64,000 nt of DNA, from NCBI RefSeq assembly GCF_028641065.1, contig NC_073378.1, positions 23,870,001 through 23,934,000 of the forward strand, written 5' to 3'. The notes beneath the pieces were generated by a model that made no database searches, was not told the origin of the DNA, and worked only from the letters and a program-made list of their open reading frames with translations. How positions within the stretch are numbered: position 1 is the stretch's first letter; each line of letters opens with the position of its first letter. This stretch comes from Leucoraja erinacea. Taxonomy: Eukaryota. Shown piece by piece: positions 4,826-63,684 of the stretch. Both the position numbers and the translations under genes were made by a program.

Positions 4826-5456
4826 GATTCAGGTTCAGATTCAGATTCAAACTTTATTGTCATTGTGCGGTGTACAGTACAGAGACAACGAAATGCAGTT
4901 AGCATCTCCCCAGAAGAGCGACATAGAATACAAGCAATAAATAAATATACGTAAATACAGTTGTTGTAGTGCAATTTTTTCTGGGTGAAGGAGTGTCGGG
5001 GGGGGGGGGGGGGAGGGGAGTGACTGGCAGTCACCGAGGTACGGTTAAGTAATGTAATAGCCGCAGGGAAGAAGCTGTCCTGGACCTGCTGGTCCGGCAA
5101 TGGAGAGACCTGTAGCACCTCCCGGATGGTAGGAGGGTAAACAGTCTGTGGTTGGGGTGAGAGCAGTCCTTGACGATGCTGAGCGCCCTTCGTAGACAAC
5201 GCTTGCTTTGGACAGACTCAATGGAGGGGAGCAAGGAACCGGTGCTTTCCGGTCGGAGACAGAGCAGTTGCCATACCATACTGTGATACAGTTTGTAAGG
5301 ATGCTCTCGATGGTGCAGCGGTAGAAGTTCACCAGGATCTGAGGAGACAGATGGACCTTCTTTAGTCTCCTCAGGAAGAAGAGATGCTGGTGAGCCTTCT
5401 TGACCAGTGTTGAGGTATTGTGGGTCCAAGAGAGGTAATCGGAGATGTTGACCCCG
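4826..5456 (-). mobile_element. Rex1/Babar-type LINE 3' fragment
   Basis: ORFs NFYRCTIESILTNCITVWYGNCSVSDRKA and HPNHRLFTLLPSGRCYRSL; (TGAATC)n-type tail at the left end. Confidence 0.8.
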
Positions 5457-5556
5457 AGTTAAAAAACAAATCAAACTCGTGGTAATCATGTAGAATTAAC
5501 GTAGCCAAGAGAGGTTAACGTAGGGAACGTCGGGAACGTCGGAACTCGTGGACGTA

Positions 5557-6121
5557 ACTGTGGCTGTGGAAAGCATCTTGTCTGGAAATATTACCATCTG
5601 GTTTGGGAATTGCTCTGCCCAGGACAAGAAGGCTCTGCAGAGAGTAGTGCGTTCGGCCGAACTTACTGTGGGAACTTCACTCGCCCCCCCTGCAGGAACT
5701 ATACATCAGGAGGTGCAACTCCAGAGCCAATAAAATCATGGGGGACCACTTCCACCCCTGCAACGGACTGTTCCAGCTGCTATGGTCAGGCAAACGCATC
5801 TGTTGCCTTGCTGCAAGAACAGAGAGGTTGAGAAGGATTTTCTTCCCAGAGGCCATTAGGACTGTAAACTCCTATCTCACCAGGGAGTAACTTTTACTGA
5901 ACCACTCTACTGCTTTTTTTTAAATTGCTGTTTTTTTTCCCTTTTTCCTTCCACCCACAATATTTAATATGTAAAAGAATATGTGATTGTTCCATTCTGA
6001 TTGTAGTTTGTTTGCTTGTTTGTTTGTTTGTCTTTTTGCACAAAGTCCGCGAGCATTGCCACTTTTCATTTCACTGCACATCTCGTATGTGCATGTGACG
6101 AATAAACTCGACTTGACTTGA
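5557..6121 (+). mobile_element. Rex1/Babar-type LINE 3' fragment
   Basis: AVESILSGNITIWFGNCSAQDKKALQRVVRSAE; ends aataaactc(gactt)n. Confidence 0.8.
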
Positions 6122-6447
6122 CCTTAGCGACTTGAAACGCTAACGGCAGGTACTCGGGAAACGTGTTAACTCGTGAAAAATTTTCAACATGTTGAAAGAT
6201 TTCCACGAGTCAAATGTACTCTTGAATGAAACATTTAAAACTTTTAAACTCGTTGTAATAGCGTAGTAGCCCGTGAGTTTACCATAGTGACTTGTGAGTA
6301 ACTTGTGGGTTTGGCCTGAGTGCCTGAAGTGAAATGTTGAAAATTAGTCAGATCTTAATGGAAAATTTTACAGTGATCTAACAATTCATTTTCAGTGAGT
6401 AATGCCTTTCAATGATTGCTGCCAGACCTTGAACATATGCAGTTCAA

Positions 6448-8711
6448 ATGGACACCCGTTGCCTTAGCACAGCATGGCTTTTAGTATTACTAACTCCAAG
6501 GGAAGGGCACGGATCAGTTTTAGTGATGCAGCTCAATGGGGTCAAACTCGACCAGGTTCTCCAGCCACAGGAGCTTCGCCTACGGGGAAGCATCCATACC
6601 CTGTGCCGAGATACAGATGGCTACCGACCGGGTTAGGGTGACTGAGGGCAGGCGGGTGTGTTTAACCTGTAAGGGGGATGTTCCTTTGGGGAGATGGTGG
6701 TGGCTCAGGAAGCTGAGCTCGGACATGAGGGATCGATCCTCGGACTGGGAAAGACTGGACAATGATACCTACCGGACCATCACGGGGTCACCGGGAGGGA
6801 TCACTGTATGTTGGGACAAATGGTTGGCCTATGACCAGGGGCTTTATTTATGTCTATGAGGGTCTGCCAAGGTGTGTCCGGTAGGGGTATCAATAACTTT
6901 CGTCAAGTGGTGGCAAGACCCCGGGAATGGGATAGATTGGGACCGCAGTGGGCAGGCATGTGTGGCCCCCAGGACTGGGATGACAGTAAAAGCAACCGAA
7001 TTGCTGGTTCAGGTGAAGAAGCCCCTACCCACAGCCCAACCGATCGACCCTCACAACTGTCCAACCACCACCAAAGGGCCGGAGAATGGGTTAGCATTTG
7101 TCCCAACCAAAAGGGTGCTGTACCAGGGAGTGCATTACGCTGTGGCCTCAGTAGTATTAAATTTGACTGAAGTGCGGTTACCCGCATGGTGTCCCCGTGA
7201 GACGGAATTATTATATCAGGCCCTGCTAAAAGACATGTTCCAGAAATTCCACAACCTGGATTTTGGGGACATAGACATTGAAGAGATGTACCGCGGGGGA
7301 GGGGATTTCACTTTGGGGTCCGGTAGGCAAAGACGAGGGGTGGTTAACGACGGGTTTACAGCATTTAACACGGGGACGTCTATTATTAATAGCATGGACA
7401 ACGTAGAACTGGCCTTGCAGATCAATCAGTTGAAGGGCCAGTTACGAAAGGTTCTGGGGGAGGAAAATGCGGTGGTAGGATCGGGACTGCACGAAGAGGT
7501 GGCAATGACTCTACATCTAAAAGAAATCATAGCACAATTGGAGACACATGCAAAAACGATAAACGCTTTGATTAAAGAGGACCGGAATGCATCCGATCAG
7601 GCTGCACAGAATGAGGTGTGTGGGCCGTATGGGCCGTATGGTGCGTGGTTGTTGGGGGAGGGGAGGAGCAACCTGGAAGACCTGAGGCAAGGTCGGGTCC
7701 CCTCCTGGATAAGCAACCAGCACCTAGCAGCGCTACACCCTTATAACAGCACTTTGAGTCCTTGTCAGCTTCGTGTGGCTTCCGAGGCCTACCCGGTACC
7801 GGTGGATTGCGGAAAATCCAATCACACCATAATGGGAGTGGTCGTAAGAATCCCGGTGATGGGAACCTCGGCACGACCAGCTCCTCTGTACCGAGTGGAG
7901 AACGTGGGAGTTGTTCGTGGGGGGGGTGCATATTCGCTACGGGAAGGTCCCGCCCTATGTCATAGTGAGGGAGCAAGCTGTGACAGGCATTGACCTTTTG
8001 GGTTGTCGGAGCCGGGGAGCACAGGTAATCCTGTGTCCCCAGCACATGGGCGCTGAGGCTAGGCCTCAGTGTGGGTTCAGGACTGTTGGGGCACAGCCTA
8101 TAAACTGCACCATGGAGGCGATGGCAGCAGACCATGTCCCTCCACAGGTGGTGTATATAGGCAGTGGGACGTACTGTGTCACCACAAGTGCCCAGCGGTA
8201 TCAGCACGGATCACAGCTGTGGTGCCCGATACTGCACAGCAGCTTCTGCTTTAAACCCAGGGCAGAAGTCCATGTGGCACAGCAGCGAATATTACCCATC
8301 CCGGAACCTTCTTCGGTTCACCTCTCGGTACGAGAAAATGTAACTGACTTATTTAACTATGTTGCCCATTTTGGGTATGATATTCCCCCAGTGAATGAAA
8401 AATTAAAAGAGTTGCTGGTGGCGGTCGAGTTGTCGCACAAACACTTCTTCTCCCTGGAACAAAAGACTCTGGATATCGCCAGGGAGATCGAAGAGATCAA
8501 GTCTCCAAGTTGGTGGGACCTGGAGTCCTGGATCATAGTTCCAGCATGGGTCCGCATCGTGTCCCATGTTCTGATCATCTGCCAGATGATAATTGTGCTG
8601 TATTTGCTATGCATTAATTGCAAATTTAAAAGGCGGAGGAGGATGGCCAAATTACAACAGCTGGTAAATCGAGCCGCCCGATGTCACCATAACGACACCC
8701 CATCACTGTAA
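6448..8711 (+). pseudogene. env: Endogenous viral envelope / class I fusion glycoprotein gene (F-protein-like) with N-terminal Ig-like domain; about 750 aa when reconstructed, 3 lesions in the assembly
   Basis: Stitched from ORFs 6448..6636 (signal peptide MDTRCLSTAWLLVLLTPREGHG), 6536..6859 plus 6872..7993 (same frame, single TGA at 6857-6859) and 7911..8711 (frameshift at the G8 run 7919-7926). Furin site RQRR (7325-7336) then fusion peptide GVVNDGFTAFNTGTSII, HR1 (LALQINQLKGQLRKVL..LKEIIAQLETHAKTINAL), Cys-rich region, HR2 (VNEKLKELL..LDIAREIEEIK), Trp-rich MPER SWWDLESW, TM and KFKRRRR stop-transfer; several NxS/T sequons. Confidence 0.85.
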
Positions 8712-8872
8712 AATGTCTGTACTCTAGTGCAAGTTTTTGTACATATGTTGTAATCCCTGCATTTCCACGGAATGGTCGTGAGGGTACTGTATGGTTTGTG
8801 GGATTGATGTAAAGTAAAAGGTGTATAGTGTGTTAATGTGCTTCGAGGGTCTAGTTTAGCAATTAAGGGGGC

Positions 8873-9794
8873 TTTCGGGGTACATAATTTCACCTTCTCA
8901 CCAGGAGTGTTTACAGCTCTTGAGGCTGGAGGATTGCCCACTAACTTTGTCAATCGATACGGTCCGTGCAAGCCTGGACGTATCGTAGGGGCATGTAAGT
9001 TATTGGGGCAAATCCTCCAAAATCATGGAAGAACTCGGATAAGGACATGGACATTTTAAAAAGACAAATTTGCTGGCTGCAACGGAATAACCCCCAATCC
9101 ACAAACCTGTCTGGCATGTGGACTTGCGCATCAAACAACTGGGCGAATGGTGTGGGGAGGAAAGGCTGAGACGGAGATAACGAGGTTATCTTGGATACAC
9201 AAAGGAAGGAACCAAGTCTCAGCAGGATGACCCATCCATCGAGACAATAGGAGCCCGTCCAGACGATGGGATAACGATCAGGCTGAGGGATCATGACATC
9301 AGCAAGCCCCTTATCATCGGAAGCCTATTGTTCATGCCAGATCGAAACTGGGTATCATCAAAAGAACCCTGTTCATCCAGAGGACCACCTGGGGGTTTCA
9401 AAGAAAGCTCAGGTATAAAACAGTAGTCAAGCCAGAACTCTTTCTCTCTTTCTTCCTGCTCTGCTGGACGGCTCGTGAGCCCAAACTGTAAGTATCCCAG
9501 TGACCTGGTGAAATTCCCGAAATAGGATAGCATTGTTGAGATAAAGGGGGGAGTGGTTGTACTTGCAAGTAAAAGTGTGTAAAGTAAGTTTTACGACGTG
9601 CCCGATAGTTTTTCGTCCATAGTCTTAGTTTAAAGCGTAAGTTTAGCCACGTATTATGTAGTGTTGGTGAGATTCGATTTCTCATTGTTTAATAAAGCCT
9701 TTAAATCTTAGACTTGCTTTGAGTCCATCTTGGTTTCTGTTTTCCCTCATCAGCACACTCTGGTCAATTCAACCTTTTATCATATTCCACCATA
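8873..9794 (+). mobile_element. Putative retroviral LTR downstream of env (about 0.9 kb; boundaries approximate)
   Basis: Short purine tract AAGGGGG at 8865-8871; TATAAAA at 9414-9420; pyrimidine-rich R-like start at about 9440; donor CT|GTAAGT at 9488; AATAAA at 9691-9696; T-rich U5-like segment ending TTCCACCATA at about 9794. No second LTR in the window to confirm the ends. Confidence 0.55.
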
Positions 9795-10021
9795 ATTCCG
9801 AGGTCTAGAACCTGGGGGAATCCCTTTTGTTGTATTCTCCCTCTTGGAAACCGCTCGAGTGGATTGGTGGCCGTTTGACCCTCTGACAAGGGAGAGAATA
9901 ACTCGGGCAGTTGGGCCCGAAGTGAAATAAAGGGAAAGGCAAAACCCCTACAGCTGGAGAGTCTTGCATGAATGTTGAGAACAATCTGGCACTGTGTGAA
10001 CGGTGAGGAGAGTCTATATAA

Positions 10022-38326: not shown

Positions 38327-39478
38327 CTACCTAAACAGCGCCTGTCTATCCATGTCGCAATGTGCCAGCAGGCTGGAGGAGCGGGCAAAGGCCTTGACAC
38401 AGGGCGGGCAGGTGAAGAGGTGCTGGCCGGTGTGGACTCGCCGGTGCTCCAGCAGGTGGTCAAGGTGGGTGAAGCCCTTATCACAGGACGGGCAGGGGAA
38501 GGGACTCTCACCGCTGTGGGTACGCCAGTGCTGCCAGTCTTGCCACATTCAGCACACGCTAAGGGTCTCTCTCCGGCGTGTAGCCGCTGGTTCCCCCGCA
38601 GCCTCCGTGCACTCTTGAAACGCTTGCCGCAGTGGGAGCTGCCGCAACTCCCGCGAGCTGTCGAACGCCTCCCCGCAGTACAGGCAGTCGTAGGGTTGGC
38701 CACTGCTGTGCATGCGTTAGTGAGACAGGGTGTGGGAGGCCGTGGCAAAGCGCTCTTCACACACAGGGCTGGGGACGGGACGGTCGCCGGTGTGCATATG
38801 CTGGTGGGACAGTAGCCCGGAGGAGTTGATGAAGCCCTGGTTGCAGATGAAGGGGTGCTCGACTGTGTGGGTGCGCTGGTGCCTCAGTAGGTGGCTGGAG
38901 CGGGTGAAGCCCTTGCCACACTGGGTGCAGGTGTAGGGCCGCTCCCCGGTGTGGGTGTGCTGGTGCCTCAGCAGGTGACAGGACTGGGTGAAACCGTTGC
39001 CACATTGGGCGCAGATGAAGGGGCGCTCGTCGGTGTGGCTGCGCTGGTGCCTCAGCAAGTGGCTGGAGCAGGTGAAGCCCTTGCCACAGTCGCCGCAGGT
39101 GTAGGGCCGCTCCCCAGTGTGCAGGCGCCTGTGCACCTTCAGGTTAGTGGGCCACTTGAAGACTTTGCCGCAGTCAGAGCAGGTGAAGGGCCGCTCACAG
39201 CTGTGTACCCGCCGGTGCTCCCACAGGCCCGCCGGCTGGGCAAAGCTCTTGCCACAGATGGAGCAGCCATAGGGCTTCTCGCCCGTGTGCAAACGCTGGT
39301 GCTCCTTCAGGTCATTCGCCGTCTTGAAGCGCTTGCTGCAGTCAGAGCAGTCGAAGGGGCGTTCTCCCGTGTGCACCCGCCGGTGGGTCTCCAGCTGGCT
39401 CGGCTTCTGCCAGGCCTTGCCACACACGTCGCACTCATAACGCTTCTCCTTGTTGTGCCCCGTCATGTGGTCCTCCAT
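38327..39478 (-). CDS. KRAB-less multi-C2H2 zinc-finger gene, copy A (7 intact fingers, then a premature TAA at 38717 and frameshifted distal fingers)
   Basis: MEDHMTGHNKEKRYECDVCGK...; TGERPY/F linkers; acceptor ctctgtgttcccctcctgcag at about 39610; distal fingers CPSCDKGFTHLDHLLEHRRVH end at 38327. Confidence 0.88.
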
Positions 39479-62491: not shown

Positions 62492-63684
62492 CTACCTAAA
62501 CAGCACCGATCTACCCACGTCGCAATGTGCCAGCAGGCTGGAGGAGCGGGCAAAGGCCTTGCCACAGAGCGGGCAGGTGAAGGGGTTCTGGCTGGTGTGG
62601 ACTTGCCGGTGCTCCAGCAGGTGGTCAAGGTGGGTGAAGCCCTTATCACAGGACGGGCAGGGGAAGGGACTCTCACCGCTGTGGGTACGTCGGTGCTGCG
62701 ATAGCCTTGCCACACTCAGCACACACTAAGGGTCTCTATCCGGTGTGTATCCGCTGGTTCCCCCGCAGCCTCCGTGCACTCTTGAAACGCTTGCCGCAAT
62801 GGGAGGAGTCGCTCGCCTTCGTGATTCTGCTGGTGCTGCTGCAACTCACGCGAGCTGTCGAATGCCTCCCCGCAGTACGGGCAGTTGTAGGGCTGGCCAC
62901 TGGTGTGCATGTGCTGGTGAGACAGAGCGTGGGAGGCCGTGGCAAAGCGCTCTTCACACACAGGGCTGGGGACCGGACGGTCGCCGGCGTGCACCTGCTG
63001 GTGGGACAGCAGATAGGTGGAGCGAGTGAAGCCCTTGCCGCACTGGGCGCAGATGAAGGGGCGCTTGCCAGTGTGGATGTACTGGTGCCTCAGCAGGTTG
63101 CTGTAGAAGGTGAAGCCCTTGCCGCAGTGGGCGCAGATGAAGAGGTGCTTGCCGGTGTGGATGCTCTGGTGCCTCAGCAAGTTGCTGGAGAGGGTGAAGC
63201 CCTTGCCGCACTGGGCGCAGATGTAGGGCCGCTCCCCGGTGTGGGTGCGCTGATGCAACAGCAGGTGGCAGGAGCGAGTAAAGCATTTGCCGCACTGGGC
63301 GCAGATGTAGGGGCGCTCGCCGGTGTGGGTGCGCTGGTGCCTCAGCAGGTGGCTGGAGCAAGTGAAGCCCTTGCCGCACTGGGCGCAGGTGAAGGGGCGC
63401 TCGTCAGTGTGGGTGCGCTGGTGCCTCAGCATGTTGCTGGAGAGGGTGAAGCCCTTGCCACAGTGGCTGCAGGTGTAGGGCCGCTCCCCGGTATGCACCC
63501 GCCTGTGCACCTTCAGGTCCTTGGACGACTTGAACCTTTTGCTGCAGTCGGAGCAGGTGAAGGGGCGTTCTCCCGTGTGAACCCGCCGGTGGATCTCCAG
63601 CTGGCTTGGGCTCTGCCAGGCCTTGCCACACACGTCGCACTCATAACGCTTCTCCTTGTTGTGCCCTGTCATGTGGTGGTCCAT
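62492..63684 (-). CDS. KRAB-less multi-C2H2 zinc-finger gene, copy B (8 intact fingers, distal part frameshifted)
   Basis: 322-aa ORF MDHHMTGHNKEKRYECDVCGK... with TGERPY linkers; distal fingers in ORF 62492..62722; acceptor at about 63810. Confidence 0.88.

Follow-up and report, generated by a model that had tools for sequence, protein, structure and literature searches.

Positions 6537–9951 of the window (the whole 64,000 nt stretch of Leucoraja erinacea DNA analysed) are read here, with a probability of about 80%, as the dead 3′ end of a multi-copy endogenous retrovirus (ERV). What is left is an env in three pieces and the 3′ LTR. The virus was likely similar to snakehead retrovirus (SnRV), and its Env is predicted to be a class Ib fusion protein that likely carried an Ig-like module in front. 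The element family is a Retroviridae ERV. Other copies have the organization LTR-gag-pro-RT-tether-RNaseH-IN-env-LTR with a target duplication and a primer site, and the window copy keeps env and the 3′ LTR (Table 1).

Table 1. Features of the truncated provirus and its upstream flank (window coordinates)
Feature	Position	Strand	Remarks
Unrelated high-copy repeat fused to the truncated provirus	6123–6536	.	Carries a false "signal peptide" start (6448); outside the element
env piece 1	6537–6859	+	N-terminal module, likely Ig-like; true start and signal peptide absent from window copy
env piece 2	6860–7993	+	Frame holds to about 7925; an F2-like strand plus helix, then the furin site, the predicted fusion peptide and HRA, and the beginning of the beta region
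Furin-type cleavage motif RQRR	7325–7336	+	Sequence motif
Predicted fusion peptide	7337–7393	+	Position inferred; low pLDDT
Predicted HRA/central helices	7343–7690	+	Model helices 198–238 and 248–309, mapped from copy L006
Predicted Cys-rich beta domains (F domains I and II)	7784–8291	+	Span the second frameshift; model-based
env piece 3	7860–8711	+	In frame from about 7920; beta domains, HRB, Trp-rich membrane-proximal stretch, TM, short basic tail, stop
HRB	about 8397–8495	+	Predicted, within env piece 3
TM	8556–8615	+	Kyte-Doolittle 2.55; Trp-rich stretch precedes, basic tail follows
Region between env and LTR	8712–8993	+	Short purine tract at its end; possible broken 3′ ORF from here into U3
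3′ LTR, 958 bp	8994–9951	+	TGTA...TACA; also serves as the 5′ LTR in other copies and occurs as solo LTRs

The window env is made up of three open stretches on the + strand, 6527–6859 (110 aa), 6860–7993 (377 aa) and 7860–8711 (283 aa), with one frameshift near 6858 and a second in a G-run near 7920–7930. There is also a 9 nt tandem duplication near 7626, and, compared with other copies, the window env lacks roughly the first 65 codons that follow the ATG. The difference between the window env and eight long copies is 0.017–0.050. An earlier note on this DNA had joined four overlapping ORFs into one gene with a signal peptide in the first. An env-like gene is present, but it lies in three frameshifted pieces from 6537 to 8711. 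ORF 6448–6636 was excluded from it because other copies match the window only from 6537 and the frame of this ORF is wrong relative to env beyond that position. The proposed signal peptide falls in the unrelated repeat and was discarded. Other elements of the earlier description were recovered: the RQRR motif, directly followed by GVVNDGFTAFNTG, the Trp-rich stretch, TM and basic tail, and a long Cys-rich region that, in the predicted model, is a beta region separating two helical repeats. The putative fusion peptide is weakly hydrophobic (0.31). As the earlier note had also stated, neither CX6CC nor a QNR/QNK ISD-type word is found in env pieces 2 and 3. Judged by these sequence characters and by a TM subunit of ~455 aa, the protein is not a gamma-type Env. 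The window locus is a dead fossil, an ordinary decayed provirus.

Copies of the repeat that abuts the provirus are up to 94% identical (40 of 1797 candidates scored), and in both copies checked the repeat runs on into different sequence. Together with 5449–5559 it forms one uncharacterized high-copy repeat that has a short internal inverted repeat and is interrupted by another insertion at about 5560–6122.

When window positions 6440–10000 were used as a query, at least 60 matches were found at the 40 places scored (of 1558 candidates), with up to 96% identity over 3.4 kb. Because 40 scored genomic places match, the env-like gene is not a chance feature. Most matches end at about 9952, and the element is present in dozens of copies that are 88–97% identical. 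The LTR sequence recurs upstream in 16 of the 18 stretches fetched. Target duplications of 4 bp were exact in 7 of 10 LTR pairs, shared three of four bases in another and were unreadable in two. In all eight copies printed, a primer site complementary to tRNA 3′ ends of this genome lies behind the 5′ LTR. The 18 nt site has two mismatches to a tRNA-Arg(TCG) gene and is an exact match to the 3′ end of a 93 nt tRNA-like gene (L107:1430–1522) that ARAGORN calls Gly(TCC) and that resembles tRNA-Arg(TCG). SnRV uses a tRNA-Arg primer. Divergence between paired LTRs was 0.012–0.085 (K2P, eight pairs), equivalent to about 3–19 or 27–190 million years at the two rates quoted in PMC4422223.

Between their LTRs, the other copies have the gene order gag(CCHC)-stop-pro-RT-tether-RNaseH-IN-env. 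The internal regions encode a Gag with a zinc knuckle, a protease, RT, two RNase H domains (one degenerate, one full) and an integrase, and Pol is in the same frame as Gag, directly past the Gag stop. Gag includes a long coiled coil (TMF_TATA_bd, E = 0.0029); it gave no SMC match, and a similar stretch is found in SnRV Gag. In other copies, env starts with an ATG just past a pyrimidine tract that ends in AG, and a hydrophobic leader comes next. Neither gag nor pol of this family was found in the window or in the 40 kb before it. A same-family LTR located 41 kb upstream of the window env (L056:4339–5332) was considered as the 5′ LTR of the window copy and rejected, as it is a solo LTR with its own GTTC target duplication.

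No open stretch exceeded 650 codons in the env region of 20 loci or 664 codons in 18 upstream stretches, and each of these lengths was reached. One out-of-frame env deletion, removing the equivalent of window 6537–7160, is common to 7 of the 20 loci (L010–L013, L015, L017 and L019). It fuses the region of the signal peptide to a point midway through the F2-like part and defines an env-defective subfamily that was still amplified. A deletion from protease to RNase H is common to the upstream stretches of L023, L024, L028 and L031, and is in frame in some, where the start of the protease is fused to integrase. The sharing of these deletions implies that defective copies continued to multiply, and they likely relied on proteins provided in trans. 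In L024, L027 and L028 the first in-frame gag ATGs lie inside the primer-binding site, leaving almost no leader. Behind env and into U3, window 8840–9500 and the same region in L002–L019 contain recurrent open stretches of 80–202 codons, each copy broken differently. These may represent the decayed remains of a 3′ accessory ORF located where SnRV has its 3′ORF and foamy viruses have tas.

A full HMMER scan returned 45 Env relatives. Among the 10 looked up, the named sources were Pristiophorus, Rhinoraja, Mustelus, Chiloscyllium, Heterodontus and Scyliorhinus, and the frogs Pelodytes, Mantella and Xenopus. Pairwise BLAST against SnRV Env gave nothing significant, the window pieces had no Pfam match under E 0.05, and for the F core, Pfam, PDB sequences and the ESM Atlas all came back empty when searched with single sequences. 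Baculo_F was matched weakly by 1 of the 39 profile members. The 39-row Env profile matched SnRV Env at 91.6% (E = 8e-7, 296 columns), with SnRV Gag and Pol as controls at 0.3% and 0.1%, and a partial loki Env at 94.5% (E = 7.9e-8). The homology to SnRV Env is not exclusive because loki Env also matches. Against 177,635 PDB sequences, the profile had a sole match under E 0.1, foamy Env 8rm1 (2.1e-4).

For structure prediction with AlphaFold2, the natural 650-codon stretch of copy L006, which is 89.5–95.8% identical to the window pieces, was used. The single-sequence model was unusable (pLDDT 37.8); with the 39-row alignment pLDDT rose to 69.6, with the core at about 90 and pTM 0.50. Among the Foldseek matches to PDB listed, 41/41 were paramyxovirus or pneumovirus F (best E 2.8e-9), with low whole-chain TM-scores of 0.19–0.33. 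The top 15 of 48,161 chains compared using VIA-align were all F or foamy Env, with Z from 11.6 to 5.6 against 5.5 for the first unrelated row (a coiled coil), on a scale where, by the tool's own warning, middling Z values are common. Newcastle disease virus F (Z 11.6, rmsd 13.2, 340 aligned), hMPV F (Z 9.2, rmsd 6.0, 283 aligned) and foamy Env (Z 8.2, rmsd 5.7, 278 aligned) were among them, and model residues 110–518 align to F and foamy Env. Matches to predicted viral structures were lispivirus and related glycoproteins, baculovirus F, an abalone herpesvirus protein and the walleye retrovirus Envs of WDSV (E = 6.1e-7) and WEHV-1 (E = 2.9e-8) (Q9WHI8, A4GTG3). We favour the F-type reading because a single family is indicated by the sequence profile and by both structure methods, despite the low TM-scores. 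The nested domains I–III of class Ib proteins, with the pre-cleavage strand in the core sheet, are predicted by the model, and furin cleavage, trimer formation and membrane fusion would proceed as in that class. The suggestion in the earlier note that this is the F-type env of an enveloped retroelement is thus upheld by profile and model, and the structural comparison it proposed found likeness to class I fusion proteins, with no cellular family as best match. On the same modelling, the "distinct" Env of the walleye epsilonretroviruses is likely also class Ib.

The module in front of this core is likely Ig-like on sequence grounds. Piece 1 carries the pattern V.EG..V.L.C...W...D.G.Y.C, which is kept in 6/6 rows. 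The ESM Atlas gave Ig families at 0.90–0.92, with nine of the 10 family-bearing matches in one Ig-type family or clan. Pfam scores were Ig_3 E = 0.052 for the window piece, Ig_3 E = 0.0085 in P0050 and V-set 0.045 in relatives. The Chiloscyllium relative is named an Ig-like domain protein in UniRef, and a profile of the module had no match in PDB. Relatives in sharks, skates and frogs differ in the module at this place. By eye, the modules that precede the core start C-P-x-x-x-x-G-P-x-x-G are Ig-like in P0029 and P0045 and differently Cys-rich in P0028 and P0040; there is none in P0057 and loki, and about 500 residues in SnRV, whose Env also opens with an Ig-like pattern. Ig-type binding domains are known in gamma-type Envs, among which they have been swapped, according to the part of bioRxiv 2024.03.17.585361 available. 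The module of the element may bind a receptor.

Reference RTs were pulled from public collections by motif, and labelled by motif or against rows of the supplement of Wang and Han. Of 40 reference loci, 15 entered a quick tree and nine a rooted tree, and two of the five loki-motif loci encode RT. P0017 (near-identical to SnRV) and P0020 (partial) were left out of the quick tree, and P0023, three delta rows, two foamy rows, one MLV row, P0010 and P0011 also out of the rooted tree and AU tests. In the rooted tree (27 rows with a four-row outgroup and only two, closely related loki RTs), the element RT falls inside Retroviridae (100/98) and loki forms the sister group of all the other retroviruses. 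The basal branching of Retroviridae is not resolved in this tree; the element is found there with frog and coelacanth ERVs, and SnRV is adjacent without support, branching apart at 80/77. In the quick tree, which had no outgroup, a long loki branch shares one open node with SnRV and the group of the element. Groupings for the AU tests, loki excepted, were chosen after the first quick tree. Those with loki (p = 0.015) and epsilon (p = 0.007) were rejected, and those with foamy (p = 0.13), with SnRV alone (p = 0.13) and of the whole group with SnRV (p = 0.28) were not. Holding the group with SnRV costs 2.5 log-likelihood units, versus 16.8 with foamy.

The RT is 44.6% identical to that of SnRV, 37.6–38.0% to loki, 33–36% to foamy and 35–38% to epsilon and gamma; frog and coelacanth ERV RTs are closer than SnRV, at 50–52%. 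The Pol protein relatives include one unnamed Pol at 78% and others, from frog and coelacanth or likewise unnamed, at 50–53%, some of them labelled "NYNRIN-like". A search of IMG/VR with the RT piece returned one relative, L039, whose RT matches, on visual comparison, the row for SnRV in the supplement of Wang and Han. SnRV is the closest named virus, and best match and gene layout make the element likely SnRV-like; membership is compatible with the data, and the clade is without support.

The earlier note had offered a lokiretrovirus-like carrier as one of two readings. The element would then be the first lokiretrovirus from a cartilaginous fish, with the usual F-like Env and an added N-terminal module, and the profile match to loki Env, the dual RNase H, the long Gag coiled coil and the position of loki next to the group of the element in the unrooted tree all fit. 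Dual RNase H is not diagnostic of loki because it is common to all retroviruses, and the RT evidence runs the other way: the rooted placement inside Retroviridae, the AU rejection, the lower identity and an LPQGFH motif where the loki rows have CPFGY. Lokiretroviruses are reported from lampreys, bony fish, amphibians and reptiles, and six chondrichthyan genomes are unmarked in the table of Wang and Han, in the part available (PMC7947760). Judged by its RT, the element lies outside the loki clade and is not a lokiretrovirus, and we regard that identification as very improbable. Of the further check proposed, to find full proviruses and place their RT, LTR-gag-pol-env copies were indeed found in the genome and the loki placement was lost. 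The nearest named Env relatives are from cartilaginous fish, the host group that the earlier note had thought probable. SnRV-like ERVs have already been reported from a chimaera, as elephant shark CmiERV lineage I (PMC4422223, available part).

A more serious competitor, though still an unlikely one, is a deep retroviral lineage of its own, comprising frog, coelacanth and shark ERVs, standing apart from SnRV proper and perhaps nearer foamy-like ERVs, with its F-type Env acquired by descent or env swap. That the closest RTs belong to unnamed or "NYNRIN-like" frog and coelacanth proteins with SnRV apart, that the AU test keeps the foamy grouping, that Env matches foamy Env, and that this Env is far shorter than that of SnRV with a short tail are all consistent with it. 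The far smaller likelihood cost of the SnRV grouping argues against it, as do the CCHC Gag and same-frame gag-stop-pol arrangement, which match SnRV and are unlike foamy viruses. The Ig-like module and the unbroken Chiloscyllium relative could instead suggest a host-domesticated gene or a cellular Ig-family membrane protein. The window env has two frameshifts, no start or signal peptide, an attached LTR and dozens of close copies, its structural matches are viral fusogens only, and the Chiloscyllium protein has no match above 40% among the 61 of 79 candidates scored in the skate genome. The breaks and the truncation refute a host gene at the window locus, and its probability is negligible.

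The favoured SnRV-like ERV shares with SnRV the closest named RT, a coiled-coil CCHC Gag, stop and Pol in one frame (L039 record), and an Env core homologous over 296 columns. It differs in Env length (about 760 aa, estimated from overlapping copies, versus 1134 in the SnRV open stretch) and Env tail (about 31 versus 136 aa), in its 958 bp LTR, in that no unbroken 3′ ORF was seen, and in an RT nearer to frog and coelacanth ERVs. With lokiretroviruses it has in common a profile-homologous F-like Env with a furin motif, dual RNase H and LTR-gag-pol-env organization; its RT is outside the loki clade, and loki Env begins at the F core, without an N-terminal module. Foamy Env (PDB 8RM0/8RM1) has a class Ib core that matches by profile and structure, but its RBD is inserted before the furin site and it has a membrane-spanning Env leader (PMC11468914, available part). 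In the element the extra module is N-terminal and follows an ordinary signal peptide, in a spike-like order; its Gag contains a CCHC knuckle, and Pol is in frame past Gag. Foamy viruses are not known to have a CCHC knuckle in Gag, and make Pol apart from Gag. In Gag/Pol layout and the order of Env leader and RBD, the element differs from Spumaretrovirinae. The best structural matches, paramyxovirus and pneumovirus F, lispivirus glycoproteins and baculovirus F, share 9–16% identity with the Env of the element; F has no attached binding module, and the gene of the element sits in a retroviral genome. The walleye epsilonretrovirus Envs (WDSV, WEHV-1), whose structures match the model, are much longer, and the RT grouping with epsilon was rejected. 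They are described as distinct and non-gamma in PMC9967133 (available part).

By analogy with class I fusion proteins, Env of the ancestral virus would have been made from spliced RNA as a precursor with a signal peptide, and furin would have cut it at RQRR. The N-terminal Ig-like module would bind the receptor, after which the Env trimer would drive its fusion peptide into the target membrane, and HRA would zip with HRB into a six-helix bundle; the strand before the furin site would remain, as it does in F, within the fusion core. Once in the germ line, the family would have spread further, partly as deletion-bearing copies needing proteins in trans. The window copy has since been stripped of all sequence upstream of 6537 and is incapable of producing Env.

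Both the SnRV-like ERVs of cartilaginous fish and the F-type Envs of loki and foamy viruses have been described before. In the literature searched, with partial coverage, we found no assignment of an F fold to SnRV or SnRV-like Env, and the available parts of Viro3D, the gamma-Env review, an amphibian survey and an errantivirus study give none to SnRV-like Env. SnRV is listed as an unclassified orthoretrovirus (PMC12193657, available part). The model offers a fold and a domain map for SnRV Env, and provides evidence that SnRV-like orthoretroviruses use a class Ib fusogen. It has been published that env is needed for SnRV spread, and the homologous gene is therefore an entry protein in SnRV. 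Among deep-branching retroviruses, the F-type fusion machine likely occurs more widely than has been described. The element family is a sequence bridge linking loki, foamy and SnRV Envs, with a model that also matches walleye Envs, and the origin of retroviral Env is therefore testable by structure-guided phylogeny.

More tentatively, and at somewhat less than even odds, the F-type (class Ib) fusogen may be the ancestral retroviral Env, retained in loki, foamy viruses, SnRV, the shark-skate-frog ERV family and walleye epsilonretroviruses, with gamma- and beta-type Envs as later replacements. The F core of the SnRV-like branch would then be a chassis for exchangeable N-terminal binding modules (Ig-like, different Cys-rich, long in SnRV, or none), built on the same plan as the spike of coronaviruses. 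Against an ancestral F type in epsilonretroviruses, the gamma-Env review, in its available part, calls the walleye Env distinct and recent. The accessible text of Fernandez et al. 2024 places orthoretroviral Envs in class Ia and has the F-like fold set foamy viruses apart (PMC11468914), and that of Wang and Han describes loki Env as without overall similarity to other retroviral Envs and leaves four origin scenarios (PMC7947760).

Among the Env relatives, P0029 of the bamboo shark Chiloscyllium punctatum is an unbroken 739 aa protein and a possible case of host co-option; no closer orthologue, above 40%, was found in the skate genome (61 of 79 candidates scored). In the P0058 cluster of Mantella aurantiaca, 12 of the 15 listed members have the full 677 aa, a recent expansion. 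Elsewhere in the window, arrays of 84 nt repeats at 38750–39385 and 62788–63675 have a spacing that we take to be that of C2H2 zinc-finger exons.
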